This document shows, piece by piece, positions 6,812-63,386 of a DNA stretch of 64,000 nt; within the stretch, counting starts at the first letter, position 1; each line of letters begins with the position of its first letter. The notes beneath the pieces are model-generated. The model saw only the letters and a list, made by a program, of their open reading frames with translations, did not search any database and was not told the DNA's origin. The stretch is from Sedimentisphaerales bacterium (GTDB lineage: Bacteria > Planctomycetota > Phycisphaerae > Sedimentisphaerales > Anaerobacaceae). A program made the translations under genes and the position numbers. The stretch lies in contig JBEKWM010000002.1 in NCBI GenBank assembly GCA_049513025.1, positions 123,280 through 187,279 on the forward strand. The letters run 5' to 3'.

Positions 6812-7009
6812 TTAGCAGGGGCCGCTTGCGCTTATGTGAGCGGCCAGAAGGATGTGCCTGAGCCGGTCAACGTTGAGTTGATTGAGATAATCTTCGGTGA
6901 AGTCCAGCTTGAACCGGCCGTGGAAATTCTTGATGCGTCTTTTAAGCTCTTCCCTGTCAAGGGCTGCGATTGAGGTTGTGGTCTGTTCAAAAAATTCTTT
7001 CGAAGGCAT
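6812..7009 (-). CDS. hypothetical small protein (65 aa from the best start)
   Basis: The ORF extends to 7066, but only ATG 7009 has an SD-like GAGGTGAT just upstream. No recognisable motif. Confidence 0.4.
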   Translation of the reverse strand: MPSKEFFEQTTTSIAALDREELKRRIKNFHGRFKLDFTEDYLNQLNVDRLRHILLAAHISASGPC

Positions 7010-7205
7010 TGCATCACCTCTCATTTCTACGACGCATTTGCGAAACCGGGCCAACAATTCCGCCATAAGCGGACAAGTTTCGTATCGACGGGGCGATGGC
7101 GTCGCTTTTGCACGAATTGACTCTTTGCGTCGAAACCGTTGAAATCCGCCTGCGATTGCGAAAAAAATAGTATACGATTTGAGTATGGTCTGATAAGTTT
7201 CTGGT

Positions 7206-8255
7206 ATGAAGACCGAAGAACTGGATTATTGCCTGCCGGAAGAGTTGATTGCGCAGCAGCCGGCGAAAAACCGCAGCCAGTCCCGACTGCTGGTTTTAAA
7301 CAGACCAACCGGTCAACTAATCGACACCCGGTTCGCCAAAGTCGGGGAATTTCTGCGCAAGGGCGATTGCCTTGTCTTAAACGATACAAAGGTATTGGCT
7401 GCACGTTTCTTCGCGAAACGTCAGACGGGGGGCTCGCTCGAAGGGCTGTTTTTGAATCAACAGGATAAAGGCCTCTGGGAGGTAATGCTCAAAGGCCTCG
7501 GCAAAGTCAAAACGGGGGAACACATCTGGTTCAAGGATATCAAAGGCGACGATTTTTGTCGCGCGGAAGTAATTGAGAAAAAAAGCGACGGCAAGTGCCT
7601 TCTGAAAATCGAAGCCGAATTGCCGGCAGAAAAAACGCTTCAAAAAATTGGGTTTCCCCCCCTGCCGCCGTATATCAGGCGCGACACCGATTTGCGCCAG
7701 GCCGCGAAAGACAGGCAAAGATACCAGACGGTTTACGCCCGCAATTTGGGGGCAGTGGCCGCACCGACGGCCGGATTGCATTTCACCAAAAAGTTGATTG
7801 AGACGCTCGAAACGCGGGGCGTTGAATTCGCATACGTCACGCTGGCCGTGGGCGAGGGGACGTTCAAGCCCGTGACCGCCGAAACGCTCGAAGAACATCA
7901 GATACACGAGGAACGATTCAGCATCGACGAAAGAAACGTGGGCGTAATAAACAAAACCAGGGAAAAAGGCGGCAGGGTAATCGCCGTCGGAACAACCTCG
8001 GTCCGCGTTTTGGAAACCGCGACCGCACAGGGACAACTGTCGGCGATGACTGATTCAACGCGATTGTTTATCAAGCCGGGATACAAATTCAGAATGGTTG
8101 ACGGGATGGTAACAAATTTTCACCTTCCCAAATCAACGCTGCTCGCCCTTGTCGGCGCTTTCGCCGGGCTTGATACGATACTCGCCGCTTACCGATACGC
8201 TATTGAGAAGCGATACCGTTTTTACTCTTACGGCGACGCGATGCTAATAATTTGA
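7206..8255 (+). CDS. queA: S-adenosylmethionine:tRNA ribosyltransferase-isomerase
   Basis: 349 aa. N-terminus LDYCLPEELIAQQPAKNRSQSRLLVL, internal PPLPPYI and C-terminal RFYSYGDAML are characteristic QueA blocks. Confidence 0.95.
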   Translation: MKTEELDYCLPEELIAQQPAKNRSQSRLLVLNRPTGQLIDTRFAKVGEFLRKGDCLVLNDTKVLAARFFAKRQTGGSLEGLFLNQQDKGLWEVMLKGLGKVKTGEHIWFKDIKGDDFCRAEVIEKKSDGKCLLKIEAELPAEKTLQKIGFPPLPPYIRRDTDLRQAAKDRQRYQTVYARNLGAVAAPTAGLHFTKKLIETLETRGVEFAYVTLAVGEGTFKPVTAETLEEHQIHEERFSIDERNVGVINKTREKGGRVIAVGTTSVRVLETATAQGQLSAMTDSTRLFIKPGYKFRMVDGMVTNFHLPKSTLLALVGAFAGLDTILAAYRYAIEKRYRFYSYGDAMLII

Positions 8256-8333
8256 CATTCGATGCTGATGGGGTTATATATTTGGGCAAGGGAATATCGA
8301 ATAATGGATTATCGTATAAGCAGGAGTTTAGAT

Positions 8334-9488
8334 ATGAACAAGAGAATTCTGGTTGGCGTGGTTTTGATGGCAGTTGTGGTTTACGTGAGCAGTTGCTGCG
8401 AAATGAAATGCTGTGCTAAAAAATGTAAGGAGCCGGGAAAAATGAGCGTTAAAGTCCAACCTTTTGGGAAAACACAGGACGGTCAGCAAGTTGATATCGT
8501 GACACTTACAAACGACAAGTGCCTTACGGCCAAAATAATGACCTACGGCGGAATTATTGTTTCGTTTGAGGCGCCGGACAAAAATGGCAAACCGGGTGAT
8601 ATCGTGCTGGGATTTGATAATTTGGACGGTTACCTCAAAGGGCATCCGTATTTCGGCGCGATAATCGGTCGATACGGCAACCGTATCGCCGGGGCGAAAT
8701 TTACCTTGGACGGCAAGGAATATAAGCTTGCGGCAAACAATGGAGAGAATTCTCTGCACGGCGGGATAGTCGGCTTTGATAAAGTTGTCTGGAAAATTGA
8801 GAAGGCCGAGGCAAAGGGGAATAAAGCCGAATTAAAACTCAGCTATACCAGCAAGGACGGCGAGGAAGGTTTCTCGGGGAATCTCAAGTGCATAGTTACT
8901 TATACCCTAACATCGGATAATAAACTGGAAATGAAATATGAGGCGACAACGGATAAACCCACCGTCGTGAACCTGACGAATCACGCATATTGGAACCTCG
9001 CGGGGCAGGGTAACGGCGACGTCCTTGGCCACGAGTTGATGATAAACGCCGACAAATACACGCCCGTAGATAAGGGGCTGATACCGACGGGCGAATTAAA
9101 AGACGTGAAGGACACACCGTTGGATTTCACAAAGCCAATGACGATTGGCTCGAGAATAAAGCAAATTGATATCGGCGGCTACGACCATAACTACGTCCTC
9201 AAGGGCAAGGTGGAAAAAATGAAGCTTGCGGCGAAAGTATATGAGCCGACCAGCGGACGAGTGATGGAAATACAGACGACCGAGCCGGGCATTCAATTTT
9301 ACAGCAGCATCGGGCTTGATGGTTCGCTCAAAGGCAAGGACGGCAAGGTCTATAATAAATTCGGCGCGTTCTGCTTAGAGACGCAGCATTATCCTGATTC
9401 GCCTAACAAGCCGACTTTCCCATCGACAGTGTTGCGGCCAGGTGAAAAATACGAGACGGTGACAATACACACGTTCTCAACAAAATAA
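8334..9488 (+). CDS. galM: aldose 1-epimerase (galactose mutarotase), lipoprotein-type signal
   Basis: ATG 8334 is preceded by AGGAG (8322-8326). Signal MNKRILVGVVLMAVVVYVSSC. Motifs NSLHGGIVGFDKVVW, TNHAYWNL and CLETQHYPDSPN. Confidence 0.9.
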   Translation: MNKRILVGVVLMAVVVYVSSCCEMKCCAKKCKEPGKMSVKVQPFGKTQDGQQVDIVTLTNDKCLTAKIMTYGGIIVSFEAPDKNGKPGDIVLGFDNLDGYLKGHPYFGAIIGRYGNRIAGAKFTLDGKEYKLAANNGENSLHGGIVGFDKVVWKIEKAEAKGNKAELKLSYTSKDGEEGFSGNLKCIVTYTLTSDNKLEMKYEATTDKPTVVNLTNHAYWNLAGQGNGDVLGHELMINADKYTPVDKGLIPTGELKDVKDTPLDFTKPMTIGSRIKQIDIGGYDHNYVLKGKVEKMKLAAKVYEPTSGRVMEIQTTEPGIQFYSSIGLDGSLKGKDGKVYNKFGAFCLETQHYPDSPNKPTFPSTVLRPGEKYETVTIHTFSTK

Positions 9489-9504
9489 AACCGTTGGTCG
9501 GCGT

Positions 9505-11199
9505 TTACTTCGACTCGGAGTTGCCGAATTCGTGGAAACCGGATTCTGCTGCTTCTGTTGTTTGCTGAGCATTCGACAGGTCGTTGTTCGCAAATAGCCG
9601 CCCGTTTGTCATATCAGTGGTCTGCAGAAAAACGCCTGTTCCTTCAGCCGCCCTGCAATTTAGAATTATTGCACCATTCACTTTGTCGAGGACAATAGCG
9701 GCCCTGCTGTCGCCGAGATGCGCCTGTCTGCCAATGAAACCGTCAATTTCAACGTTGCTGACGTTCTCGCACCATATACTATTGCTGAAAAAATCGGGCA
9801 AACCTTCCTCCCATTCGGTCTCGAATCCGCTGATTTTCAGCCCGGCCACGTCTTTGCAGTAAATCGCCGGTATATCGTGCTTGAATTGTGCCGTGGCCAA
9901 ATCGGCGCTTGTCCGCAGGTCAAAATTCCCGCCGTATGATGTGCTCAGCGGGCCGTTTTTTATTTTTACTTTGACGTTGTCGAAAGCGAGGTCTTTAATG
10001 ACGCTGTCCTTGCTGCCCCAAACGACGATACCGCTTTGCGACTCGGCAATTATATTTGAGAAGCGAACGTTTTTTATCTGGCCGAGTTTTTTTATGTCTG
10101 GAGCGTTAGGAACGGCGGAAACCTGGATGGGTTCCGCGTGTCCCCACCAGTGTCCCGTGTGCAGACGGGTTTGAATAATGATATTCGAAAAAAGCACGTT
10201 TTCAACCGATGCCTCGTCGCGGACGTTGACGAGCAGGCCGCGGTTTGATTCGCGGATGATAATATTTGAAAAAGTGCAGTTTTTAATGTCCCCCCCTGTG
10301 TAGCCGACGCGAAGCGCGGTCGAGCGGGATTGCAGCGTGCAGTTGGTCACGGTTATATTTTCGGTTTTACCCGGCCCGAGGGGCTCTCCGCCGAGAATCT
10401 GATGATGGCGGGAGTCGCCTATCGAGGTAATGGCAATACCATCGTCGCCTGCGGAGATAATACAATCGCTGATATGAACGTTGGCGCACGAAGTGCAGTG
10501 AATGCCATCGTTATTGGGTACTACAAGGGGATTATCTATGTGAACTCCTGAAACGACAACGTCCCTGCATCGGTCCAGATGAACCGTCCAGAGCGGGGCA
10601 TCGGTGATTGTAACATCCCAAATCAGCACATTCTTGCAGAGCGAAAAAGCGACAAGCCGGCCGGGTCTTTCGTAAGGAATAACCGGCCCATCCGCTGTGC
10701 CGAACTTCGGGTCCATATATTCCCTGCCCTGGCGCGTAAATTTCGGGTCAAAATCGCCAAACCTCTCGGCCCCGGTGCGTGTGCTGGCCATATCCATAAA
10801 ACTTGTCCCGCTGCCGTCGATAACGCCCCGGCCGATGATTGCGATATTGTCTGCGTTTGCAGCCGATATGAGGCCGTATCTTTGACCGTTGACGATATAA
10901 TCGTTGAGGTCTGCGCTGCCTTTGAGAACCGCGCCAGCTTCAAGATGCAGGGTGGTGTTGGCATACACCCGTATCGGCCCTGTGCGAAATGTACCCGGCG
11001 GAACCGTTACCGTGCCGCCGCCTGTCTTTGCGCAGGCGGAAAGGGCCTTATTAATCGGGGCGGTATTGAGCGTCTTTGCGTCACCCACCGCGCCAAAGTC
11101 GGTTATGACAAAAGTGCCGGACGTGTTCTTGGCGCAGGAACTCAAGCCAAACGCGGATATTATTGCCGCCAACAACAAAATAATTTTGCGAAGGTACAT
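9505..11199 (-). CDS. glycoside hydrolase family 28-like (polygalacturonase/pectin-lyase-fold) lipoprotein
   Basis: Signal MYLRKIILLLAAIISAFGLSSC. Motifs TDFGAVGDAKTLNT and NNDGIH...AGDDGIAI (GH28 catalytic-type Asp motifs). Periodic beta-helix repeats. Confidence 0.8.
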   Translation of the reverse strand: MYLRKIILLLAAIISAFGLSSCAKNTSGTFVITDFGAVGDAKTLNTAPINKALSACAKTGGGTVTVPPGTFRTGPIRVYANTTLHLEAGAVLKGSADLNDYIVNGQRYGLISAANADNIAIIGRGVIDGSGTSFMDMASTRTGAERFGDFDPKFTRQGREYMDPKFGTADGPVIPYERPGRLVAFSLCKNVLIWDVTITDAPLWTVHLDRCRDVVVSGVHIDNPLVVPNNDGIHCTSCANVHISDCIISAGDDGIAITSIGDSRHHQILGGEPLGPGKTENITVTNCTLQSRSTALRVGYTGGDIKNCTFSNIIIRESNRGLLVNVRDEASVENVLFSNIIIQTRLHTGHWWGHAEPIQVSAVPNAPDIKKLGQIKNVRFSNIIAESQSGIVVWGSKDSVIKDLAFDNVKVKIKNGPLSTSYGGNFDLRTSADLATAQFKHDIPAIYCKDVAGLKISGFETEWEEGLPDFFSNSIWCENVSNVEIDGFIGRQAHLGDSRAAIVLDKVNGAIILNCRAAEGTGVFLQTTDMTNGRLFANNDLSNAQQTTEAAESGFHEFGNSESK

Positions 11200-11205
11200 A
11201 TTCCC

Positions 11206-12633
11206 TCATGCAAGATAGATTTTATCCCCGGGTTTTATTGCGGGTATCTTGTCGCGTTTTTTAACGACGTCTTCTCTTGTCAGGGCAAAACTCGGCGCAA
11301 TCTCGACAATGCAATCTGGCGAGCCGTCCGGTTTTCTTGGAATTTTCACGCCCGCCGATTCGAGCCAGGCAGCCGCACGGTCAATCATCATTTGCCTTGT
11401 TGTTTCGACGCTGTCAACACCCGTGGCGTTTTTGGTCGGGGCGAATTCTTCGCTGCGGAGGGTTTGCAGAATAATCGACTCTTTGCAAAGCGGCAGTGCG
11501 TCGAAGACAAAGCTCTCGAGTTTAACACCGTTCGGCTCTTTTGGTTCAACACGCTGCCCCTTATCATTTATATGGGAAATTTTCTTTATCGCCCTGTGCA
11601 TCGGCAGGACAAATCCGTGATTGTTAAGCCGGTCGACAAAATTGACGCTTATGATGTGAATGGCGATACTGCCAAGCTCAAAAACCAGCGAGCCGTCCGG
11701 ATTTTCCTTTTTGGCAAGCTCGTCCGGCAAATCGATGTATTCGATGACAGTAACTTTCCCGTCGGCTAAACAGAAGTTGCCGAGTTTTTCAAACGGGCCT
11801 GTTTTAACAAGCGCCTTCGAGGACATCTCCGCGCCGTCGAGGGCATGCAGGCCGATGAACAGCGGGTCAAAGATATTTATGAGAGGATTATCTACCTGCC
11901 AGTAGCTTATGAACTCGATGCCGCGTTTTTTCATATCAGCCAGCGCGCCGCTGTTGTAGAGCGCGCGCAAGCTGCCCCCGTGACCGTCGGGAGAACAGGC
12001 AATCGCGTCTATATCAGCAAGCAGGATTTTGCCGTCGAGCGAAAAATTGGGCAGTGTTCCCTGCTGGAATATGAATACGTCTTTTTTATTCAGTCCGTAA
12101 TAATTGTTGGCGGAAAAAATATCCAGCGTCTGCTGATGATTCAGGGGGCTGGTCATAATATACCATGGACAGCGGGTATTGTTTTTTTCGCAGGCGGCCA
12201 AAATATCCTCGGCGAATATCGCAAAGAGCGTCTTGTTTTTGACGGGGCTTATGGGAAAGTTCCCTTTCGGCCCGTCGAAACCCAGCCGGGTCCCCTGCCC
12301 GCCGGCAACTACAAACGCCGCGACCTTACCCTGCGAAATCAGCTTGTCACCCAGTTGACGCGCCTGGCCGTATTTCCCTCGCTGGCCGGCATCGCTCGGC
12401 TGATGGGCGTAAAATGGAGCAGGCGCGAGCTTGACGGGCAGCTTGAAAGGGGCGGTGTTCATAACAAACTCTGCCCGCCAGCGATCTAACTGGACAAAGT
12501 CCAGTTGGCCAATCTGGGCGAGAAGCCGTTCCTGCCTGGCTGGGTCAAGCCGGGCCCAGAAGGCCAAAAGGCGGGTCTCTCCATATTTTTTTAGAACTTT
12601 CTGAAGATTTTGAAGCTCACTTTGGTCAGTCAT
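11206..12633 (-). CDS. UDP-sugar / UDP-N-acetylhexosamine pyrophosphorylase (UDPGP/UAP1 family)
   Basis: 475 aa. AGGQGTRLGFDGPKG nucleotide-binding loop and overall UDPGP layout. Confidence 0.85.
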   Translation of the reverse strand: MTDQSELQNLQKVLKKYGETRLLAFWARLDPARQERLLAQIGQLDFVQLDRWRAEFVMNTAPFKLPVKLAPAPFYAHQPSDAGQRGKYGQARQLGDKLISQGKVAAFVVAGGQGTRLGFDGPKGNFPISPVKNKTLFAIFAEDILAACEKNNTRCPWYIMTSPLNHQQTLDIFSANNYYGLNKKDVFIFQQGTLPNFSLDGKILLADIDAIACSPDGHGGSLRALYNSGALADMKKRGIEFISYWQVDNPLINIFDPLFIGLHALDGAEMSSKALVKTGPFEKLGNFCLADGKVTVIEYIDLPDELAKKENPDGSLVFELGSIAIHIISVNFVDRLNNHGFVLPMHRAIKKISHINDKGQRVEPKEPNGVKLESFVFDALPLCKESIILQTLRSEEFAPTKNATGVDSVETTRQMMIDRAAAWLESAGVKIPRKPDGSPDCIVEIAPSFALTREDVVKKRDKIPAIKPGDKIYLA

Positions 12634-14379: not shown

Positions 14380-17300
14380 CTATCTATTTTCCAGTCGGGT
14401 GTCCAGAACATAAGACCTCAATATAAGGCCAGGAATACTGCTTCTCTTAGCTACTTCTTTCGCCTGCTCCTCAAAATGACTTTGAGCTTGTTCAATCATA
14501 TATTTGGGTGAATCCTGTTTTCTATAATCATTATATGCCCATTTATCGCAGACGAACCAACCCACCAAGTACATACCATGTGGGCATTGATTATCTTGTA
14601 GATATTTGCCAACAAGTTGAGTCTCCATCGCTATGTCTAATTCTTTATTCCAACATCCTTTCACCTCGATTATGGCTTTGATTATGTCGACGCTGCCTTT
14701 TGCTCTTGGATTGATAGCATCAATGTGAATATCTGTTTTCTGGCCACGACGGATTTGAACCTCCCTATTTACAATAATACCCCTACGCACGCTTAGGTCC
14801 TCGGCAATGTGTCTTGCGATATAATCGCAAAAATGCGGCTCATCTTTTGGGCAACACAAAGGTTTTTGGCTATTTCCTCGGTTATCCCAAAGATCATATA
14901 CCGCAGGCAATTCGTCATGAAGCTTCTTTTCTAACCGCTGGAGCGATTCAAATATCACATTAAGTAATTGCTCGCCGCTTTCAACGAAGGTCCGTTGATT
15001 GTCTTGTGCAAGAGAGATTATCTGCTCTGGAGAAAGGGGATTCCACGTCATAGCACGAGTATTCTTTTCAGCTTCCAAAATATGCCATTTCATCCAACCA
15101 AGATGGGGTAAAGCCTTTTCTATTCGTCGGATTTGCTCAAGGGATTGCTTTGTTCCACGCTCCTCTAAATGTCTTAAAAGTCCGTCTCTGAAGTCATCGA
15201 TACTCCTAACAGTATTGATTCCAGCTTTTTGGTATGGATATTGTTCTACCATCCAGAGATACATATCAGCCATTTGTTGTTCTGTAAGTTGCTCTGTGAA
15301 TAAAACTAAGTTGTCATGGCGATAATGTTCAACAGACCACTCTATTATTTCTTTGCCAAAAACCACATCGACTTGAATGGCAGGCCAGAGAACCGGCCAA
15401 GCTATATCGGGACAATTTCCAAATAATGATTCAGATATGATAATCGCTCGTTTTCGAGCTGCTTTATCTTGTGGAGGAGGCACAGGTATTACCGACTTAG
15501 CATATTCAACAACTGGCACAAACTCTTTTTTAATGAGGAAATTTAATAAATCACTAAAGGCTTCTATTTTCATATTTGCTGAAAGGATTTCTTCAAACAA
15601 GGCCTCGCCTAAGCGATGATCAAAAATATGTTGGATTCTCTCTATAATAAAAACATGACCGCTTTCATTGTTTTCCTTGCGAACAATCTTTATTAAAGCC
15701 TCGATTGTTTCTTTAGGTGCAGTTTTATAACAACTCGACATTATTGAATCGTGCGGTTCTTTTTCATAACCACTATTTAAAGGATAAGAAACAACTACTT
15801 GAGCCCATATCTTCCAAGAATCTGCTGACAAGTGCTCAACGAAATATGGATCAAATTTCATTAAAAGCGCCATAGCTCTATACCCGGCCATGTTAGGTCG
15901 ATAGTTGGTGTCGCCAAGCCAAGAGGCATCTATTGTAGGGGGATTCAATAGATATTTCTTTGCAGCACTTATGATTCTCTCTTTGATCTCCGTATCTGCT
16001 TCTTTCCATACTGGTAATGTTGTCAAATCATAATTGAATTCATCTTCGGGATGGTAGAGATTATCAGTTTTGAGTGTCATAATAAGATTGATCATCCACC
16101 AAGCATTAATGTCGCCTCTTTCAAATTTATTAAGAAGCGAAAGCACCCGTTTTTTGGGTGATGGCTTAAAGAATAAACGTATATTTCTTCTCTTTGGAAG
16201 TCGATGGAATTTCATGTACCAATAAAAATTCCTTACTCTGATGTTTAGTATATATATGGGCTTGAGAAGTTTTAAAGAATAACCAAATATCCTTCCGAGA
16301 AAAGGATATTTTCGACGAAATTTAAGCAAACGATCAAAGTTCCACGGAAAGGATGTTCGAGGAAAGTAACGTAGTAACCCACCCCAAAGTTCCGCTTCTT
16401 CTTGTGTTGCATTATTATACTGTTCGATCAGCCAATCTATATCCTGTTCTGTAACTAATGGAACCAATGTTACAATCAGATGTATGGCTATTTTTTGTTT
16501 GATAAATAATGGCGCAATTTCTTTTACTATTATTCGACGTTTTTGGGTATCTTTTGCTATCTCTTTATTAAAAGATTGCTCGTTGCCTGGAACAATTTGC
16601 TCGTAATTTCTTATTAGCTCAAATACTGCTCGAGTAAAAGGTTTCACAAGTGTCGGCATATCAAGTAAATATTTCCATGCAGCCGGTACGATGCGTTCTC
16701 GTATTCGTTCAGTATCTGAGTGATATCCCCATTTTTTGGGATTATCTGCAATCCAATCTAAAGCATAGGTAAGATCATCAGGTTTAAGATTCTTATCAAG
16801 TTCCTCAGATAATTTCCCAAGAAAAATGAAGTAAGAACCCAAAAAATCTTGTTTTTTGGGGGGAGTAAGAGCAATGAAAAGTTCCTTTGCTGTCATTAAA
16901 TCTGGCCAACATGCCAATAGAGCACAACCCTTTAATTCGTCCTCAGGGTCATCCCCTAACTCACCGAAAACAAGTGGCTTTAATTTGAGTTTGGATTCAG
17001 AATCACCCATATTCGTAATTGCATAACCAGATTTTTGACGTATAAATATTTTGTCATTCTGGTCGAGTGCAACTGCTACAAGATTCGGCAAAACCTCTTT
17101 AACATCACATTCCCAAGCAATTTCTATAGCAACTCGCCTTACTAAGAAACCCTTACTTTTATCGTCAATATATGGCCGAACTTGTTCTGCGAGAGATGGA
17201 TGTTTCAATTTGTGATAGTATCCACGCATGTCCCTGTCTATTAATCTTTCTTGTTCGAACATCATTAATAATTTTTCGACTAATCGTTTTCTATCTTCAA

Positions 17301-18591
17301 CATCAAATGATGAAACATCACTCCTGAGAAGAACTTCTGGATCATTTTCCAAAATGCTTGTCAGGATATTGTCATTATCATTTGCTACCCATGCCGCTGT
17401 TTCGTACAATTGAGGAATAAGTTTCCCTTGGTTATCAGAAGGATTGACTAACAAGCCCATGATTTGATTTTCACTCATCGAACTTACAGACAAATATCTC
17501 GCCGCAAGAAATTCCGCATAAGTTTGGTGCGCCCAGCCCATTCTATGAGGACCTAGCGATGTGAAAAGACCTGTCCGAAGTGTAGCCATGACCAAGTCAT
17601 TTGTTACTAATATATTCTCGCCGTTTACTTTTTCGCTGCCCCCCAATAGCTCACCAATCCTAACAGCTTCCTCTAAAACGTCGCCATTGTCGATGTCATT
17701 CCAGACAGCATATTTATTCCCAAAAATTGTAGCGGCGGCTATTCGACTAGCAGTATTCAGAAGTATGTCTGATTGATAATGGGATGTAATTCCAGTTTCT
17801 CGACGTCTTTCGTCTGGTTCTTCACACAATATATTACATCCCTTCTCGTATAATTCAGATTGTTTGGCCGGGAAAGTCCCTTCTGCTTTATAGACTTTAA
17901 CTAGCATATTGAGTGTTACCGGCTTGATAGCGAAGGGCTGGGCGTAATTTGATATGATTAAATCTATGAACTTATCGGGATTATTTACATCTTCAGATTG
18001 TGCCGCATTGCGGACATCTTTTTTTCTAAGCGGTGCTAATTTGTATACTTTGACTTTTTCTTTGTCATAAAGATGCCCTAAACCTTTCTCGAATGAATTG
18101 GGCCATTCTGCAGTCCTGCATGCGATTCTTAAAAATAATCTTTCTTTCAATTTCTGATATTTTGAAAACTCTTCTTCCAGCAACGAAGTTACAGTGTCCA
18201 GCCGAAGCAAACATTCATCAAGACTATCTAAAAACAAATGAAGGTAATGTGTGCCCTTGGTCCATCTTATAAACTTTTCGTCTTCAAATATTTTGGAATA
18301 AAGACGGGTTCCTTCACTAATTGACTTTAAATTAACAAAAAGACATTCATTTTTAAATTGAGTAACGCATTGATTATAAAAATTACTGATTTCAAAGGAT
18401 TTCCCAATCCCGGGTTCGCCAAGGAGAACCAGATACTGCTGTGTGTGAAGATTTTCTGTGGATATAAGGTTCGGATTTGAAAATTTACCGTAGTCATCAT
18501 CTGGGTCGGTAAGAAATCTATTATCACCCAACTGATATTCAGTCTCTCGTGGGCACCAGAATCGTTTCCAGTTGTAATCCTTTTCCGGCAT
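14380..18591 (-). CDS. STAND/NACHT-type P-loop NTPase with long helical region and C-terminal PD-(D/E)xK nuclease-like domain
   Basis: The ORF is open to a TTG at 18639; the first ATG is 18591. Walker A LLGEPGIGKS (nt 18397-18420). Walker B-like LHLFLDSLDE. About 1,000 aa predicted helical. C-terminus TDIHID...IIEVKG (nt 14659-14733) is a D...E-x-K motif. Visibly AT-rich compared with both flanks. Confidence 0.85.
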   Translation of the reverse strand: MPEKDYNWKRFWCPRETEYQLGDNRFLTDPDDDYGKFSNPNLISTENLHTQQYLVLLGEPGIGKSFEISNFYNQCVTQFKNECLFVNLKSISEGTRLYSKIFEDEKFIRWTKGTHYLHLFLDSLDECLLRLDTVTSLLEEEFSKYQKLKERLFLRIACRTAEWPNSFEKGLGHLYDKEKVKVYKLAPLRKKDVRNAAQSEDVNNPDKFIDLIISNYAQPFAIKPVTLNMLVKVYKAEGTFPAKQSELYEKGCNILCEEPDERRRETGITSHYQSDILLNTASRIAAATIFGNKYAVWNDIDNGDVLEEAVRIGELLGGSEKVNGENILVTNDLVMATLRTGLFTSLGPHRMGWAHQTYAEFLAARYLSVSSMSENQIMGLLVNPSDNQGKLIPQLYETAAWVANDNDNILTSILENDPEVLLRSDVSSFDVEDRKRLVEKLLMMFEQERLIDRDMRGYYHKLKHPSLAEQVRPYIDDKSKGFLVRRVAIEIAWECDVKEVLPNLVAVALDQNDKIFIRQKSGYAITNMGDSESKLKLKPLVFGELGDDPEDELKGCALLACWPDLMTAKELFIALTPPKKQDFLGSYFIFLGKLSEELDKNLKPDDLTYALDWIADNPKKWGYHSDTERIRERIVPAAWKYLLDMPTLVKPFTRAVFELIRNYEQIVPGNEQSFNKEIAKDTQKRRIIVKEIAPLFIKQKIAIHLIVTLVPLVTEQDIDWLIEQYNNATQEEAELWGGLLRYFPRTSFPWNFDRLLKFRRKYPFLGRIFGYSLKLLKPIYILNIRVRNFYWYMKFHRLPKRRNIRLFFKPSPKKRVLSLLNKFERGDINAWWMINLIMTLKTDNLYHPEDEFNYDLTTLPVWKEADTEIKERIISAAKKYLLNPPTIDASWLGDTNYRPNMAGYRAMALLMKFDPYFVEHLSADSWKIWAQVVVSYPLNSGYEKEPHDSIMSSCYKTAPKETIEALIKIVRKENNESGHVFIIERIQHIFDHRLGEALFEEILSANMKIEAFSDLLNFLIKKEFVPVVEYAKSVIPVPPPQDKAARKRAIIISESLFGNCPDIAWPVLWPAIQVDVVFGKEIIEWSVEHYRHDNLVLFTEQLTEQQMADMYLWMVEQYPYQKAGINTVRSIDDFRDGLLRHLEERGTKQSLEQIRRIEKALPHLGWMKWHILEAEKNTRAMTWNPLSPEQIISLAQDNQRTFVESGEQLLNVIFESLQRLEKKLHDELPAVYDLWDNRGNSQKPLCCPKDEPHFCDYIARHIAEDLSVRRGIIVNREVQIRRGQKTDIHIDAINPRAKGSVDIIKAIIEVKGCWNKELDIAMETQLVGKYLQDNQCPHGMYLVGWFVCDKWAYNDYRKQDSPKYMIEQAQSHFEEQAKEVAKRSSIPGLILRSYVLDTRLENR

Positions 18592-18657
18592 ACAATTATT
18601 AGTCCGCAATCTTCCAGCCTTGAGTTTCTGTAAAACCAATTTATCCGCCTGTGGTGG

Positions 18658-18686
18658 ACTATAAATCCTTACAAACGAGGTGTCAA
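18658..18686 (-). promoter_or_regulatory. near-consensus sigma70 promoter for the NACHT gene (TTGACA-17 nt-TATAGT on the - strand)
   Basis: The + strand shows ACTATA at 18658-18663 and TGTCAA at 18681-18686. The predicted TSS lies about 60 nt upstream of ATG 18591. Confidence 0.4.
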
Positions 18687-18927: not shown

Positions 18928-19011
18928 GCGGATGTGGCGGAACTGGCAGACGCGCAGGCTTCAGGAGCCTGTGGGCTCACGCTCGTGGAGGTTCGACTCC
19001 TCTCATCCGCA
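18928..19011 (+). tRNA. tRNA-Leu (anticodon CAG), type II with long variable arm, CCA not encoded
   Basis: Hand-folded. Acceptor GCGGATG/CATCCGC + discriminator A. D-stem GCG/CGC. Anticodon stem CAGGC/GCCTG with loop TTCAGGA. 16-nt variable arm. T-arm GGAGG-TTCGACT-CCTCT. Confidence 0.93.
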
Positions 19012-19140: not shown

Positions 19141-19875
19141 ATGACGAACTTATTATGGACATTTCAAAACCGCGTAACGCATTTGCAGCCCTCGTTGCTT
19201 TTGACGCTCGCGGCCGTTACCATCGCGGCGGGCCTGTTTGTCTGGCTCGGCGGACTCGGCTTCAGAAAAATTATGTTTGTCGCAATAGGCCTCTTTTTCG
19301 GCGCATTCTGCACATTACTTTCTTCCGGCACAAATCTGTTTCTCGCCGCTGCCATTATTGGCATCTGTGCAATGCTGGCGCTTACATTGCAGGAAACGTT
19401 TCTTGTGCTGATCGCCTCGGCCTTAGCCGCCGGAATTGGCTATTTTCTGCTGATTCGGCCTTACTTCCATCCGTCCAGCAACATTTTGGCGGTAATCAGA
19501 CAGTTGACCATCGGCGTCCCATACTACAACTGGCCCATACTGCTGGCATTGACCGCCGTCCCATTTGTGGCGGCATCCTGGCTGGGCGCCTCAGCCCTTT
19601 TTAGTTCAGCCGCGGGAACAATACTTATCCTGGCGGGGACGATTATGGCTCTATTGAATTTCGACTATCCGGCCGTCGGCTATATGACCACCAGGCAGGA
19701 TATTTACATCGCGATAATCGCCCTGGCGACAATCCTTGGCACTATCGCCCAATTGTGGCTGTTGCCGAAGATTAGCACGCTATTTGTTGCCGTCAAGGTC
19801 AAAGTTAAAAAAGTCAAGGCCAGGAAAAGAGATACCGAGGCAACGGCCAAAACCTCAACCTGGCGCACTGCTTAA
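19141..19875 (+). CDS. hypothetical polytopic membrane protein
   Basis: 244 aa. About 6 hydrophobic helices and a Lys-rich C-terminal tail. No motif recognised. Confidence 0.6.
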   Translation: MTNLLWTFQNRVTHLQPSLLLTLAAVTIAAGLFVWLGGLGFRKIMFVAIGLFFGAFCTLLSSGTNLFLAAAIIGICAMLALTLQETFLVLIASALAAGIGYFLLIRPYFHPSSNILAVIRQLTIGVPYYNWPILLALTAVPFVAASWLGASALFSSAAGTILILAGTIMALLNFDYPAVGYMTTRQDIYIAIIALATILGTIAQLWLLPKISTLFVAVKVKVKKVKARKRDTEATAKTSTWRTA

Positions 19876-19920: not shown

Positions 19921-20619
19921 ATGAGTTTTTCGTTGCTTTTGGCGAAAACATCACATCATCTTGACAACGCTACCGTTGAGTACGGCACTAAATATGTCCT
20001 CCGTGCCCTCGATTTCGTCTGGCAGCAGACCAGCATCCTCACATGGCTCCAAGCCGTTATCGGTATATCATTCGGCGTTATCGTCCTTATGTACGGCTGG
20101 CGAATTTACAAGGCACTCACCGTAATTGGCTTTGGCATCCTCGGCCTCTATCTCGGCTTGTGGATTGGCAATCAGTTCCAAAAACCCCTCCCCGGCGCAA
20201 TCGTCGGGTGCGTTCTTCTGGTCATCTTGGCAATCCCACTTATGCGGTGGGCGGTCGCGGTCCTCGGCGCAGTCGCGGGCGGCATCCTCGCTGCCGGTAT
20301 ATGGCACTCTTGTAATCTTCCGCAGGAATATGTCTGGGCGGGCGGCCTTATCGGCTTCGTCGCGGGCGGGATGATTTCATTCGTCGTCTTCAAACTCGCC
20401 GTGATGCTCTTCACAAGCTTAAGCGGGACATCACTTATCGTCATCGGCGCCTTCGCCCTCATCTATCGCTACGAAACCTTTGCCAGCGACCCGCCAACAA
20501 CGCATCTCAACCATCTCTATTACAGCAATCCCTGGTTCTTGCCTTTATTGCTCACCGCCGGCACATTACTCGGCATCATACTCCAATTCGGGTTTTTCAA
20601 GGGATCAACAAAGGAATAG
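19921..20619 (+). CDS. hypothetical polytopic membrane protein (DUF4203-like topology)
   Basis: GGAG RBS. 232 aa with 6-7 TM helices. Confidence 0.65.
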   Translation: MSFSLLLAKTSHHLDNATVEYGTKYVLRALDFVWQQTSILTWLQAVIGISFGVIVLMYGWRIYKALTVIGFGILGLYLGLWIGNQFQKPLPGAIVGCVLLVILAIPLMRWAVAVLGAVAGGILAAGIWHSCNLPQEYVWAGGLIGFVAGGMISFVVFKLAVMLFTSLSGTSLIVIGAFALIYRYETFASDPPTTHLNHLYYSNPWFLPLLLTAGTLLGIILQFGFFKGSTKE

Positions 20620-21865: not shown

Positions 21866-22175
21866 TGTTCTACTCCTTAACCTAATTCAGGATTAGTTTC
21901 GAACGCCTGTTTTTTTGAGACATGATGCCGGCTGCCATTGTCTCAAAGCCGACATAAGGCCGCAACTCTTTTCTGGTCATTCTGTGCCGTCTCTGCCTTT
22001 TTTATTAGCCACTCCCGTTCCCGGAAGGGACGCCTTTCGGCGAGATTTCACGGATTACACGGTTTTCTGCTGTTGTAAAAAGACAGGGGTTAGAGGATTG
22101 GGGGTTGTTTTATTGTTAATAGTCAGTAAGATAAATAGAAAGAAAAACAATAGCCATGGTATGGAGACCAGATAA

Positions 22176-22559
22176 ATGATTACAGATACTCATAAAACTG
22201 CGGCAAGGTCTCTCTTTGGAGAAGTTGCAGTAAATCGAACCGACATGCCTTTGTTTGTGAACAAGACAAAGTTTATAGAAGCAATTCGACTGTTCAAAGA
22301 GCAAGACAACCTTTCAAAACTTAGATATGCGGTATTGGATTTAGAAGGTAATCTACACAGTGTGAAAGACGACAAGATAGGCGTTCTAAACATACACAGC
22401 AATGGGGATACAATCAACTTTAGCCAGAGACACTTGCTTGACCAGCTTGACCAAATTGCTGATTCGCAGACATTGGAGCGTGCGAAGTACTATACTGAGC
22501 GTCTTGAAAAAGCCATGACGGAAATTCGAACTAATAACATCAATGTAGATTTGAACTGA
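22176..22559 (+). CDS. hypothetical protein (first gene of AT-rich block II)
   Basis: 127 aa. GGAG 9 nt upstream. No motif recognised. Confidence 0.55.
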   Translation: MITDTHKTAARSLFGEVAVNRTDMPLFVNKTKFIEAIRLFKEQDNLSKLRYAVLDLEGNLHSVKDDKIGVLNIHSNGDTINFSQRHLLDQLDQIADSQTLERAKYYTERLEKAMTEIRTNNINVDLN

Positions 22560-22632
22560 CCTAATGAATATTGATATTATTAAACGGAGAGGACAAGCAG
22601 TAATTAGTGAATGATCTCTGGGAATATGGAAT

Positions 22633-22953
22633 ATGGGAACAATAGAGGTTTCAAGTAAAGTACTCAGAAAGTGCCCAAGATGTAGTGCTCAGTTATATGA
22701 AGAAGTATATGAGGACGAAAAGACAATATATCTGGTGTGTGAAAAAAATGGGTGCGGGTATGAGAAGAAAATAAAATACAAGCACTTAAAATTCTCTTTC
22801 ACATACAGAGATGAATTTACAACAGACGTAGTGGCAAAAAATATTGAAGAAGCAATGAAAAAGATAGAAAGTGTGGATTGGAAGAGGACAGATTGTGATT
22901 TGTGGGAAGACTATCTTGATGTAGAATACTCACCTGTGGTAAAGTTGACTTAA
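22633..22953 (+). CDS. hypothetical zinc-ribbon protein
   Basis: 106 aa. CPRC...(18 aa)...CEKNGC four-Cys ribbon near the N-terminus. Confidence 0.55.
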   Translation: MGTIEVSSKVLRKCPRCSAQLYEEVYEDEKTIYLVCEKNGCGYEKKIKYKHLKFSFTYRDEFTTDVVAKNIEEAMKKIESVDWKRTDCDLWEDYLDVEYSPVVKLT

Positions 22954-22980
22954 TAGGGTATTATAAAGGTAGAGTAGTCA

Positions 22981-23160
22981 ATGGCGAAGTATATGATTAG
23001 AATTATCGCAGAGGTGGATTCATCTTTATCCAAGACAGATTTGGAATCACGATTGGTAGCGTCGCTATTTGATGTAGAATCTGAAGAAAAACTTAGTGAT
23101 GGGGACAATAACCATTTTTGTATAGTGGATTATGATTTGACAGAGGCGATACCAATATGA
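22981..23160 (+). CDS. unannotated 59-aa acidic protein, translationally coupled to the downstream nuclease
   Basis: Just below the 60-aa ORF-track cutoff. Translation MAKYMIRIIAEVDSSLSKTDLESRLVASLFDVESEEKLSDGDNNHFCIVDYDLTEAIPI. Its TGA (23158-23160) overlaps ATG 23157 (ATGA). Confidence 0.45.
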   Translation: MAKYMIRIIAEVDSSLSKTDLESRLVASLFDVESEEKLSDGDNNHFCIVDYDLTEAIPI

Positions 23161-24194
23161 AGGCGCATGTACTTATAACCAGCGCCGAAACTTTTCCTGT
23201 ATGCAGAGACAGGCTCTTTTGGGGCATCGGGACTCCCGATTGCCCGCTTAGTTTCGAAGAATGGGCGGACCCAGCCAATTCTAGAAAACCATACCTTAAA
23301 ATGCTCGTTGATATGACGAGTGTTAGCATTGGTGACCTGATATTTCTATACGAGAGGCAGGCAGGGTTCCACGGTGTCTATAAAGTAGTAAGTCCTTTAT
23401 TTTTTGACACCGAAAATGTGACTAACAAGGACAATCTTTCTGTAGGAAGTCAGTGGCCCCTTCGAATGAAACTGGAAAATGTATATTACTTTCCAAAACC
23501 GGTTCCCGAAGATTTGTTGTTCTCGACCCCACGTTATGAAAATATCTTTTGGATATGGGCTTACAGAAAAAGTCAGGGGCCTCGTGGTTGTAACACGATA
23601 ACTCCTGAAGCAACAGAGGCTTTAATAGAGTTGCTTGTAAAAATTAACGGCACTGATAGCAAATACGATGATTTTGATGGTTACACACCACCCGAATTTA
23701 AATCCGTCACGCTACAATTAGCTAAAAACGGAGAAAGGGTCGCCCTCGAAGATATTCTCAGAGGATATATCTTGGCGCATTTGGAGACAGGGGAAGGGTT
23801 GGAAGATATTTTCGGCCCCAAAGAAGATATTGAATGGTACGCTAACAACGTTCCGTACCATATAACTCAGAAGAACATTGACATTCTTGTCTTTCATAAA
23901 AACTTCCGATACACTTCCGTTCCTCTACGTTATAAATATTCCGTTGCTGAATTGAAAAAGGACGAGGCATCACCCAAAGATATCAGCCAACTTTTAAGGT
24001 ATTCCTTATGGGTAAGTGGGCGACTTGCCGATGGTGAAGCGGAGATGATTCAACCTATTCTAATAGCGCACGATTTTTCTGACGAAACTATTAAGAAAGC
24101 AAAAGCCTCTGATTTCAACGATAGAGGCATAGTGCTAGTCAAATACAAAGCCGTGAGTGAAGAAAGAATCATTTTTGAGGTTCTCGGAAAGTAA
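23157..24194 (+). CDS. PUA/EVE-like N-terminal domain fused to NucS/Shedu-like PD-(D/E)xK endonuclease domain
   Basis: 345 aa. The N-terminus (LFWGIG...SIGDLIFLYERQAGFHGVYKVVSP) resembles EVE/PUA-like barrels. The C-terminus has ALEDIL(E198)...NIDILVF(D242)...VAELKKD(E265-x-K267)...QLLRY(Q278/Y282), the nuclease-core pattern. Confidence 0.6.
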   Translation: MKAHVLITSAETFPVCRDRLFWGIGTPDCPLSFEEWADPANSRKPYLKMLVDMTSVSIGDLIFLYERQAGFHGVYKVVSPLFFDTENVTNKDNLSVGSQWPLRMKLENVYYFPKPVPEDLLFSTPRYENIFWIWAYRKSQGPRGCNTITPEATEALIELLVKINGTDSKYDDFDGYTPPEFKSVTLQLAKNGERVALEDILRGYILAHLETGEGLEDIFGPKEDIEWYANNVPYHITQKNIDILVFHKNFRYTSVPLRYKYSVAELKKDEASPKDISQLLRYSLWVSGRLADGEAEMIQPILIAHDFSDETIKKAKASDFNDRGIVLVKYKAVSEERIIFEVLGK

Positions 24195-24242
24195 GTATTT
24201 AGGATTTGAAGCAACCAAAGTGACAAGCTAAGACGTGTGGAA

Positions 24243-24548
24243 ATGGCGGGATTGGACGAACTAACTGCATATACAAAATTGAAGAGAGGAATCTGTCTGC
24301 GTGTCTTGGGTGCTATTCAGAAAGAATGTGGGGAGATCGGGAACGAGCAGATTGAAGATGATTATATTTCTTTCGAGGTTTATAGCGATTACTTCGAGGA
24401 TGCACCAAGAGCAATAAGAAATGGCCGATTTACGTTGAAACTGGTCGATAAATTCGACGATCCATTTTTTACGCTAATATATAGAATACAAATTCATAGG
24501 AAGGGGGTAGGGAGGCGGAGGTCGATGACAGAGGGATTGAAGACTTGA
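24243..24548 (+). CDS. hypothetical protein
   Basis: The ORF is open from GTG 24237; the first ATG is 24243. About 101 aa. No motif recognised. Confidence 0.45.
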   Translation: MAGLDELTAYTKLKRGICLRVLGAIQKECGEIGNEQIEDDYISFEVYSDYFEDAPRAIRNGRFTLKLVDKFDDPFFTLIYRIQIHRKGVGRRRSMTEGLKT

Positions 24549-24564
24549 AGATAGTGGAGTTGTA

Positions 24565-25407
24565 ATGGAAACGACAAAAATAGCAGTATTCAAAGGCAGA
24601 GAGGTCAGAAAGACCATACATAACAACGAATGGTGGTTTTCGATAACGGATATTATCGAAGCTCTGACGGGAAATGAAAGATCGAGGAAATACTGGAATG
24701 ACCTGAAAAATAAGCTCATAAAAGAGGGCTATTCTGAAGTGTCCGAAAAAATCGGACAGTTGAAATTACAGGCTCCAGACGGGAAACAACGTCTCACCGA
24801 TTGCGCAAATACAGAAACGCTGTTCAGGATAATTCAGACGATTCCATCGCCGAAGGCCGAACCCTTCAAGCGCTGGCTTGCGAAGGTGGGTTATGAACGT
24901 GTCCAGGAAATTGAAGACCCCGAACTTGGAACAAAAAGGACCCGCGCTTTGTACAAGGCCAAGGGGTATCCTGATGGCTGGATAGAGAAGCGTATGCGAG
25001 GAATCGCGATACGCGAGGAATTGACGGACGAATGGAAAGAACGGGGCGTAAAAGAAGAACCGGAATACGCCATCCTAACCGCGGAAATCTCGAAGGCGAC
25101 GTTCGGAGTAACGCCTTCACAATATAAACGGCTTAAAGGATTGAAACGTGAAAATCTGCGGGACCATATGAACGACCTCGAACTGATATTCAATATGTTG
25201 GGCGAGGCGGCAACGACGGAGATTGCAAGGGAAAAGGACGCACGCGGTTTCATAGAAAACAAAGTTGCTGCGAATAAAGGCGGCCAGATAGCGGGAAAAG
25301 CGAGAAAGGAACTTGAATCGCAGACCGGAAAGCGAGTCGTATCCCGTAAGAATTATCTGGAGGGACCTCCGGATAGAAAAGCATTGCCGGAGAAGAACAG
25401 ACGATGA
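24565..25407 (+). CDS. BRO-N domain / DinD-like (DNA-damage-inducible protein D family) protein
   Basis: N-terminus IAVFKGREVRKTIHNNEWWFSITDIIEALTG is BRO-N-like. The C-terminal half (LRDHMNDLELIFNMLGEAATTEI...GKARKELESQTG) parallels the E. coli DinD C-terminus. Confidence 0.75.
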   Translation: METTKIAVFKGREVRKTIHNNEWWFSITDIIEALTGNERSRKYWNDLKNKLIKEGYSEVSEKIGQLKLQAPDGKQRLTDCANTETLFRIIQTIPSPKAEPFKRWLAKVGYERVQEIEDPELGTKRTRALYKAKGYPDGWIEKRMRGIAIREELTDEWKERGVKEEPEYAILTAEISKATFGVTPSQYKRLKGLKRENLRDHMNDLELIFNMLGEAATTEIAREKDARGFIENKVAANKGGQIAGKARKELESQTGKRVVSRKNYLEGPPDRKALPEKNRR

Positions 25408-25538
25408 GCCGAACAACAATAGACCATTTAATAATTAACTCGCCTTTCGACAAGCTCAGGACAGACAGTTAGCAGCAGTTTCCAGCCCAGCTTAGAAAAC
25501 GAATCTTACAGCATTACAATAATATTGAAGCAATTACA

Positions 25539-25883
25539 TTGCGAGAAATGATACCTAACGAACTTGAAGCAGATCACAGATTTCCACAAGTCAGGTGGTC
25601 AAAAAACGAAACGTTTGATCCTGATATGTCTGATAGTCAACTTCACAACAAATTTCAACTGTTGACGCGCCAACACAATCTTTGGAAAAGTCGTTATTGT
25701 GAACATTGCGCGAAAACAGGAGAACGCGGCACGTTTATCGGTATTAATTTCTTTGCTACTGGTGGTCCAAAGTGGGATCCGCAATATCCGACGAACGACG
25801 AGCGGGGATGCTATGGTTGTTTCTGGTATGACCCAGATGTTTGGCGTCGAGCGATAAACAATGTTGTGGAAAAGCATGAATGA
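25539..25883 (+). CDS. HNH-motif endonuclease-like protein, probably an N-terminally truncated remnant
   Basis: The frame is open from 25473, with only a TTG (25539) or an internal ATG as start. ELEADHRFP...QHNLWKSRYCEHC resembles a DH...N...CxxC beta-beta-alpha-metal core. No methyltransferase is adjacent. Confidence 0.4.
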   Translation: MREMIPNELEADHRFPQVRWSKNETFDPDMSDSQLHNKFQLLTRQHNLWKSRYCEHCAKTGERGTFIGINFFATGGPKWDPQYPTNDERGCYGCFWYDPDVWRRAINNVVEKHE

Positions 25884-26080
25884 TGAATACGATTGAATAA
25901 CCGTATAATTACCTTCGGTGGGTAAACCCCGCCCTAGAACTGGATTCTCGCTTCCTTCGACTGGTTCGACGATGCTCACCACAGGCAATCTCAGGACGGA
26001 GTAGTTGCTTCAGGGAAGTTGAGCCGGGCAAACTCGCCGTGGTATAGTCCCGTCGTTCGTCGCGCGTCGCTCGTATTTCG

Positions 26081-26677
26081 TCATTTGGAATGAGACTGAG
26101 CGATTTCCGGAAAATTGAGGCGTGCAAATTCCTTATGATACATTCTTGCTGCGACATCATAGGCGCGGGCGGCGGCGATTTCGTTATCGAAGGAGCCGAG
26201 CCAGATGGATTTGCCGTTAACCTTGATTTGCGAACACCAATACCGATGCGATTTATTAAAAAAAGAACCGATAAACTGTGAGGAAGTATTTGCTTTCTTC
26301 TTCCTGTTGTGCAAATTCTGAGCCTGTGTAGCAAGGCGGAGGTTTGCCCTGCGATTATCGAGTGAATCGCCATTTATATGATCAACGACAAGGCCCTTAG
26401 GGCAATCCATAATTAACCTGTGCAAACGGACAGTAGTCGTTCGGGAAGCATCGGCCCTGACGTTGCGAACAGCATAGAATTTGTTGTCGTTTCCGCTGAT
26501 TTCCCATTTGAAGCAGCCAAAGCGGTAGTAATCCTGCTGGTCGAGAATGGTCCAGGCGTCCTCGCTGAGGTAAATCCTGCGGAAGGTGTAGCCATAGCGG
26601 AGAAGGCGAAAGACGAGCAGTGGAAAGGTGAAAAAACGGTCCAGCCAATTCGGAATACTTATGTGAATAATTGTCAT
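26081..26677 (-). CDS. HNH endonuclease + AP2 DNA-binding domain protein (homing-endonuclease-like)
   Basis: VVDHINGDSLDNRRANLRLAT (HNH_3-type) followed by YWCSQIKVNGKSIWLGSFDNEIAAARAYDVAARMYHKEFARLNFPE (AP2/ERF-type). Confidence 0.8.
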   Translation of the reverse strand: MTIIHISIPNWLDRFFTFPLLVFRLLRYGYTFRRIYLSEDAWTILDQQDYYRFGCFKWEISGNDNKFYAVRNVRADASRTTTVRLHRLIMDCPKGLVVDHINGDSLDNRRANLRLATQAQNLHNRKKKANTSSQFIGSFFNKSHRYWCSQIKVNGKSIWLGSFDNEIAAARAYDVAARMYHKEFARLNFPEIAQSHSK

Positions 26678-26695
26678 TTTCTTGCCCCCTTTTTT

Positions 26696-26720
26696 TAGCC
26701 ACAGATTACACAGATTTATT
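26696..26720 (+). repeat. solo repeat arm TAGCCACAGATTACACAGATTTATT
   Basis: Same TTTAGCCACAGA-type head as at 27087, 38871, 38885 and 61476. Followed by hairpin AGCCCCGC...GCGGGGCT (26729-26766). Confidence 0.8.
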
Positions 26721-62040: not shown

Positions 62041-62055
62041 AGAAATTCCTGAATT

Positions 62056-63354: not shown

Positions 63355-63386
63355 ACTTTCCTTGTAATTTATTTACATTATTGCAG

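Follow-up and report, generated by a model that had tools for sequence, protein, structure and literature searches.

Whether a large gene that stands alone among housekeeping-type genes and differs from them in base composition serves in defence against phages is the question raised by a stretch of 64,000 nucleotides of a Sedimentisphaerales bacterium (Planctomycetota; assembly GCA_049513025.1, contig JBEKWM010000002.1, positions 123,280 to 187,279 of the forward strand), which as a whole is referred to as the window. The gene codes for a protein of about 1,400 amino acids composed, from the N- to the C-terminus, of a NACHT-type signal transduction ATPase with numerous domains (STAND), a long helical solenoid and a nuclease-like PD-(D/E)xK domain. 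Most likely the gene serves by itself against phages and belongs to a type that is already on record, and its product probably works as a self-sufficient immune receptor in the manner of the nucleotide-binding leucine-rich repeat (NLR) proteins, in which a ligand would relieve autoinhibition, the NACHT module would oligomerise and a C-terminal deoxyribonuclease (DNase) would abort the infection. A single-gene role in defence had been proposed in the first-pass annotation of the window, and this proposal gains support from homology to the EruA and HyoA families, from variable and often defence-island-like gene contexts and from the exchange of the C-terminal effector among relatives.

The gene is intact. 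The open reading frame (ORF) at 14380..18639 on the reverse strand is the sole long one of the region and yields 1,419 residues, the length initially assigned to the protein, if read from the TTG at 18639. The start that matches all homologs (MxxxxYNWKRFWCPR) is the ATG at 18591, which gives a product of 1,403 residues that is 100% identical to a database protein (P0001) of a Sedimentisphaerales (Planctomycetota) metagenome-assembled genome. An origin in E. coli was rejected, as megablast with 13-20 kb gave no match in 5,426 genomes of that species. Residues are numbered accordingly here, the earlier numbers being higher by 16; the coordinates of the gene, its domains and its motifs are collected in Table 1.

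The N-terminal module is a NACHT-clade STAND nucleoside triphosphatase (NTPase), as first proposed, because the Walker A motif, the D[GAS]hDE-type Walker B motif, the sensor-1 residue R159 and the winged-helix residue H355 are invariant in an alignment of 59 sequences and because Avs4 and the NLRC4/NAIP proteins are the top fold matches. The D[GAS]hDE form of Walker B sets NACHT apart from other STAND NTPases (Kibby et al.). Judged by its motif, H355 is presumably the equivalent of the histidine of the 'FxHxxxQEFLAA'-type motif in NLR proteins, which gives autoactive alleles in NLRC4 (H443) and at the counterpart in bNACHT25 (Kibby et al.). The AlphaFold2 (AF2) model of residues 1-1194 (predicted local distance difference test score, pLDDT, 85.5; predicted template modelling score, pTM, 0.73) retrieved with Foldseek, as the best solved structures, Avs4 (8dgf; E 1.4e-7) and NLRC4 (4kxf; E 6.8e-7), the matches to NLRC4/NAIP ranging from E 6.8e-7 to 2.6e-5. 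The overall template modelling (TM) scores against Avs4 are low, 0.14-0.16, which means that domains are held in common and not the overall shape. At the level of Pfam profiles the P-loop STAND core is recognised less directly, as the window protein matches only AAA_22, nSTAND3 and NPHP3_N in the P-loop region, all below threshold, and has no above-threshold match to NACHT (PF05729; cut-off 26.7); the 49% identical homolog P0009 passes this cut-off with a score of 27.5, while P0017 scores 21.2. The conserved residues 1-45 ahead of the P-loop region presumably belong to the NACHT module and form no separate effector.

The C-terminal domain was taken for a PD-(D/E)xK nuclease-like module from the outset, and the structure model bears this out in that the domain appears nuclease-like, with a PD-(D/E)xK core and an intact predicted active site. 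In the AF2 model of residues 1195-1403 (pLDDT 89.3; pTM 0.87) the core displays the canonical alpha-beta-beta-beta-alpha-beta order (helix 57-76, strands 78-82, 94-101 and 107-118, helix 127-139 and strand 144-151 in the numbering of the domain), and the invariant acidic and lysine residues are located on the elements where the fold would have them, with Q1325 and Y1330 in the second core helix. Among 268 sequences, made up of the 120 closest homologs and 148 cluster representatives, E1251, R1276, D1287, E1309, K1311, Q1325 and Y1330 are conserved in every one and E1277 in 267. The motif residues named initially as D1303, E1325 and K1327, now D1287, E1309 and K1311, are thereby upheld. D1291 (D1307 in the initial numbering), a further candidate for a catalytic residue, was rejected, as it is conserved in just 210 of the 268 sequences and is probably not catalytic.

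The nuclease assignment rests on topology and motifs because no significant match to a known member of the fold was obtained. The structure searches are consistent in kind, since nearly all interpretable fold matches are PD-(D/E)xK proteins. In the PDB these comprise the weakly matching R.SwaI (probability 0.77), McrC (probability 0.75), BamHI (TM 0.42-0.45), OkrAI, Can2 and Kpn2I, and in the viral library BFVD one unnamed protein with an E value of 1e-4, followed at E values around 1e-2 by UL24, a phage 'Restriction endonuclease' (probability 0.98), DUF2726 and Mrr-like proteins. The Pfam family PDDEXK_3 is weakly matched by four of 34 family members, with a best E value of 0.024.

In NCBIfam release 20 the protein matches the families antiphage_EruA (NF058535; E 9e-69, 232.7 bits) and antiphage_HyoA (NF058534; E 1.6e-61, 208.3 bits). 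When the protein is divided, the N-terminal half still matches by itself, with residues 44-745 aligned to positions 17-689 of the EruA model. The isolated C-terminal domain gives matches of its own, residues 1203-1346 to EruA positions 1143-1272 (E 6e-13) and residues 1249-1382 to HyoA positions 1287-1416 (E 5.5e-9). The likeness to EruA and HyoA thus extends to size (the models have 1,318 and 1,430 positions), to the N-terminal NACHT module and to a homologous domain at the extreme C-terminus. On the other hand, the window family is separate from EruA and HyoA because 233 and 208 bits lie far under the respective equivalog cut-offs of 1,000 and 1,200 bits, which are also reached by none of the four plasmid relatives checked (0/4). 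The about 460 residues in between (740-1200) match no NCBIfam model, and the sensor is presumably unlike that of EruA and HyoA because this part matches neither of the two models. Many homologs carry a precomputed match to PF28130.1, a Pfam family newer than the Pfam release used, which may already cover part of the family.

The order of domains was considered unusual in the first-pass annotation, since in STAND and NLR proteins the effector commonly comes first, the NTPase second and the sensor last (literature including Kibby et al.), and the window protein departs from the canonical tripartite layout of Avs proteins, which is the same. The reversed order is real and it is not new, because EruA and HyoA display the same order and bacterial NACHT proteins with C-terminal effectors after repeats have already been described in the literature. 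With Avs4, the best structural match of residues 1-1194, the protein has in common that one gene encodes the STAND NTPase, the large helical sensor and the nuclease effector, whereas the effector of Avs proteins is N-terminal and they belong to other STAND clades; in the window protein the P-loop region follows after as few as 45 residues, and it is the C-terminus that bears the enzymatic domain. The bacterial NACHT (bNACHT) proteins of Kibby et al., such as bNACHT25 with its Mrr-like restriction endonuclease effector, share the NACHT motifs, a repeat-type sensor, an effector of the restriction-endonuclease fold and the single-gene organisation. They differ in that the effector is N-terminal in tested proteins such as bNACHT25, and the nuclease domain of the window protein has no significant match in Pfam, Mrr-type families included, while the protein as a whole is matched by no PADLOC model. 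The animal inflammasome proteins NLRC4 and NAIP resemble it in the NACHT fold and the winged-helix histidine motif, but animal NLR proteins have leucine-rich repeat sensors and CARD or BIR adaptors and no enzymatic effector, and no sequence-level similarity to them emerged from the PDB search, in which the whole protein found no relevant match. The protein can therefore be filed as an uncharacterised addition, with an inferred function, to the known bacterial NACHT defence proteins with a C-terminal enzymatic effector.

At the C-terminal position, effectors are exchanged among relatives. As the best 150 matches listed by a profile search with the C-terminal domain all belong to the same family, other architectures were sought via relatives of the N-terminal 1,194 residues, and about 50 of 80 genome loci that align over this part carry the nuclease domain. 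Relatives that are 25-37% identical over residues 1-1194 possess other C-termini, namely a GT4-conflict domain on a pTi plasmid of Rhizobium sp. K1/93 (E 9e-113), TIR_2 in Anabaena (E 1e-14), SIR2_2 in Polyangium (E 1.6e-18), CHAT in Scytonema (E 2.7e-9) and a weakly matched alpha/beta-hydrolase in Acidobacteria. In some cyanobacteria the protein ends instead in hydrophobic residues that, from visual inspection of the sequences, probably form a transmembrane tail, and Pfam finds no family there. A relative on a plasmid of Nostoc PCC 7120 ends in a zinc ribbon. These alternative modules are the standard repertoire of abortive-infection effectors. The Rhizobium sp. K1/93 relative (1,637 residues; 6983-11896) adjoins SIR2 and AAA ATPase genes, an integrase and a Tn3 transposase; its annotation as 'glycosyltransferase' is misleading, as it is really a NACHT module with solenoid and GT4-conflict domain.

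It had also been considered that the nuclease fold might sense DNA. In its full form this explanation holds that the C-terminal fold is a binding module, for example for modified or foreign DNA, and that the output lies elsewhere, such as in the consumption of ATP or the recruitment of proteins. PD-(D/E)xK folds do serve as binding modules in some systems, no N-terminal effector is evident in the 45 conserved residues before the P-loop, and the fold matches to real nucleases are weak. E1251, D1287, E1309 and K1311, however, are conserved throughout in the pattern of a working active site, relatives carry TIR, SIR2, CHAT or GT4-conflict domains at the same position, which are outputs rather than DNA sensors, and a large variable solenoid is available for sensing. 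A role as DNA sensor is thus improbable, and because the catalytic residues are invariant and effectors are swapped at the same position, the nuclease domain is better regarded as the output.

The putative sensor is the solenoid of about 800 residues. The region following the Walker motifs had been described as about 1,000 residues of helical sequence; the helical character stands, and the stretch is resolved into a NACHT module of about 350 residues and the solenoid. After the NLR proteins, Foldseek retrieved solenoids of the SF3B1, CAND1, importin-beta and huntingtin type, and several homologs match HEAT_2. Conservation is lowest in the solenoid, with a mean column identity of 0.51-0.55 at residues 600-800 and 0.55-0.59 at residues 1000-1100; the NACHT module reaches 0.64-0.79 and the C-terminal domain, in its core (residues 1251-1350), 0.70-0.78. 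Its properties fit a sensor because it is all-helical, least conserved and the sole part that includes a region without match to EruA and HyoA.

The family is large and patchily distributed. A word-indexed search found 2,478 proteins; the C-terminal domain is present in 3,408 clusters at 50% identity, and the NACHT-solenoid-nuclease family comprises at least 1,589 clusters at 50% identity with E <= 1e-30. Relatives occur in at least 140 species genomes, spread over Methanosarcinales archaea and over bacteria of more than 15 phyla, among them Planctomycetota, Cyanobacteriota, Bacteroidota, Acidobacteriota, Actinomycetota, Bacillota, Chloroflexota, Myxococcota, Pseudomonadota and Nitrospirota. 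Low GC content, which in the window gene is 0.36-0.41 compared with about 0.50 in the flanks, and patchy distribution are marks of horizontal spread.

The genomic contexts were assessed as counts over 15 loci, 10 chromosomal and five on plasmids. Half of the chromosomal loci (5/10) adjoin BREX, McrBC, AbiE or restriction-modification genes. The clear case of a defence gene nested within a BREX defence system is found in Moorella sp. Hama-1 (AP024620.1, 2877468-2897685), where the NACHT homolog P0025 is preceded by BrxC/PglY, the PglX methylase and DUF3644 and followed by an SNF2-type helicase and PglZ, with AbiEii downstream. The four others adjoin SNF2-NOV_C/DUF1156/DUF499, McrBC with AbiEi/Eii and Fic, AbiEi, and an Eco57I-type methylase, respectively. 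At all five plasmid loci the relative has genes for SIR2, TIR, AbiEi, an Abi protein or an integrase, or other NACHT genes, as neighbours. No partner gene is conserved across the 15 loci. The contexts are variable, often of defence-island type and free of any fixed partner or conserved housekeeping setting. A gene coding for HNH_3 and AP2 domains (7314-7964) is located directly upstream of the closest homolog P0002 (75% identity) on another metagenome contig, and the window itself contains an HNH_3+AP2 homing-endonuclease-like gene about 7.5 kb from the NACHT gene (26081-26677, reverse strand), which may be coincidence or may reflect a mobile endonuclease that travels with such islands.

These contexts bear on two further explanations. 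The gene might serve conflict between mobile elements, or be an addiction or exclusion module of its carrier DNA that targets incoming plasmids or integrative elements. Relatives are indeed frequent on large conjugative or mobilisable plasmids beside integrases and a Tn3 transposase, several chromosomal copies have small HNH/AP2, ORF6N, Y1-transposase-like and HNH genes beside them, and the window gene is a low-GC insertion; the absence of phage-borne copies by tblastn in 50,697 phage records is neutral in this respect. Set against this, NCBIfam designates both related families antiphage, and BREX, McrBC and AbiE neighbourhoods are classic anti-phage contexts. As the principal function a role of this kind is quite unlikely, and it and an anti-phage role are not mutually exclusive. 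It is highly improbable that the protein has a role outside immunity, for example as a STAND regulator or in DNA repair or maintenance, and bears the nuclease domain by chance. Among STAND proteins, clades without a part in defence are numerous and lie scattered between those with one (Lee et al. 2026), and the gene is found amid housekeeping genes in the window and in several other genomes, but the patchy occurrence across distant phyla and archaea with atypical GC content, the lack of a conserved neighbourhood, the exchange of the C-terminal domain for TIR, SIR2, CHAT or GT4-conflict and the copy embedded in BREX are all at odds with a housekeeping role.

The NLR-like immune receptor favoured here would work as follows. 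In the resting state the NACHT module would hold ADP, contacted by H355 of the winged helix, and the protein would stay monomeric. The HEAT-like solenoid would sense either a protein of the phage or a host factor that the infection disturbs, upon which nucleotide exchange and NACHT-driven oligomerisation would follow. Oligomerisation would join the C-terminal PD-(D/E)xK domains into an active DNase, which would cut phage DNA, host DNA or both and so end the infection, a response that the cell itself would probably not survive. The trigger, the oligomerisation, DNA as the substrate and the abortive outcome are all inferred after the example of Avs and NLR proteins. With respect to the position of the effector, it has been predicted that the solenoid brings a C-terminal effector back to its usual place beside the nucleotide-binding domain; the same work raised, and left unresolved, the question of how a switch of the NLR type governs an effector that follows the sensor (Kibby et al.).

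Several observations weigh against this interpretation. No solved nuclease was retrieved by Foldseek from the PDB at E <= 1e-3 (best around 1e-2, TM 0.38-0.45), the PDB profile search with the C-terminal domain found no nuclease, and the Pfam search of 34 members gave no significant match to a nuclease family, the Mrr-type families included. The models of residues 1-1194 and 1195-1403 were made separately and thus hold no geometry between nuclease and NACHT module. The publication behind the names EruA and HyoA was not found in the full-text literature, the 'antiphage' label being NCBI curation, and PADLOC-DB 2.0, with its Avs and NLR models, provided no match to the window protein. Finally, the other five of the 10 chromosomal loci are lone insertions amid housekeeping genes, like that of the window. 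The main texts of Lee et al. 2026 and of DefensePredictor do not name the family. A variant of the defence function, which is rather doubtful, is that the family is a distinct one with a sensor specificity of its own, unlike EruA and HyoA, in which an effector located after the sensor might be switched on differently, for example by a solenoid that cages the nuclease until the ligand binds.

Table 1. Features of the NACHT gene and of other low-GC stretches, in positions of the window
Feature	Position	Strand	Basis or remark
NACHT gene, complete coding sequence, 1,403 aa + stop	14380..18591	-	ATG 18591 is the supported start
Conserved N-terminal lead-in, aa 1-45	18457..18591	-	Near-invariant Y6, W8, R10, F11, W12, C13 ... 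P30; short strand + loops in model
NACHT module, aa 46-400 (nucleotide-binding domain, helical domain, winged helix)	17392..18456	-	NCBIfam EruA/HyoA and fold matches
Walker A G58-EPGIGKS65 (L56-LGEPGIGKS65)	18397..18420	-	G58, E59, P60, G61, G63, K64 invariant
Walker B L119-FLD122-S-L-D125-E126 (L117-HLFLDSLDE126), D[GAS]hDE signature	18214..18237	-	D122, D125, E126 invariant
Winged-helix motif G352-WAH355QTYAEFLAA364	17500..17538	-	H355, Y358, E360 invariant
HEAT/ARM-like all-helical solenoid, putative sensor, aa 401-1194	15010..17391	-	AF2 model and Foldseek
C-terminal PD-(D/E)xK (restriction-endonuclease-fold) domain, putative effector, aa 1195-1403 (209 aa)	14383..15009	-	AF2 and NCBIfam C-terminal ends
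E1251, start of first core helix	14839..14841	-	268/268; position from model; acidic helix PKDE1251PHF
D1287, start of core strand 2 ('D' of PD)	14731..14733	-	268/268; in T-D1287-IHID1291
E1309-V-K1311, core strand 3, (D/E)xK motif	14659..14667	-	E and K each 268/268; in IIE1309-V-K1311-G
Promoter-like site TTGACA-17-TATAGT	18658..18686	-	11/12 consensus matches, in the 336-bp spacer upstream of the ATG
tRNA-Leu(CAG)	18928-19011		Divergent from NACHT gene, on its other side, 336 bp upstream of the ATG
127-aa fragment, type II methyltransferase match	22176-22559		PADLOC MTase_II, E 9e-11
Bro-N protein	24565-25407		PADLOC candidate PDC-S13, almost end to end, E 1.5e-120
DEDDh/RNase_T exonuclease	61525-62040	-	PADLOC DEDDh, E 2.4e-32; PDC-S48, E 7e-30
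PDDEXK_4 protein, 432 aa	62056-63354	-	PADLOC candidate PDC-S26, E 8.7e-76
ORF without assigned family	63387-63974	-	

The setting of the gene in the window agrees with the description of an AT-rich gene between housekeeping-type genes. Downstream follow genes for a prepilin-type N-methyl protein, UDP-glucose pyrophosphorylase (UDPGP), a GH28 hydrolase, an aldose epimerase and QueA. The consensus promoter also ascribed to the gene is present as a sequence, but such sites are not in excess in the region (15 versus 13.3 in shuffles); as a consensus match only, to a consensus that may not be that of this planctomycete, it is at best suggestive of a promoter. The search around 13.9-19.3 kb revealed neither flanking direct repeats nor an integrase. 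Islands that target a tRNA gene are expected at its 3' side, whereas the NACHT gene lies directly on the 5' side of tRNA-Leu, and neither the position of the tRNA gene nor the flanks point to a route of acquisition. Just past the tRNA gene two ORFs of 244 and 232 residues (19141-19875 and 19921-20619, both forward) have normal GC content and no match in Pfam or PADLOC.

Two further stretches of the window are low in GC content. The second one (22000-27000; GC 0.38-0.46), with several ORFs without matches beside the methyltransferase fragment and the Bro-N gene, looks like the remnant of a prophage or a defence island. The third one, at the edge of the window (61525-63974; GC 0.35-0.45), contains the exonuclease, the PDDEXK_4 protein and an adjoining ORF, and is possibly another candidate defence cluster.

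With respect to its significance, the finding overturns no current concept and is solid rather than surprising. The family is large and widespread, yet nearly all annotations call its members 'hypothetical' or 'NACHT domain-containing', and they are invisible to PADLOC-DB 2.0. Their probable role in defence would allow better annotation of environmental genomes, including those of planctomycetes, cyanobacteria, acidobacteria and anaerobic methanotrophic (ANME) archaea. Moreover, one chassis of NACHT module and solenoid that bears varied C-terminal tails is a natural experiment, which could show how NLR-like control is exerted over an effector that comes after the sensor.

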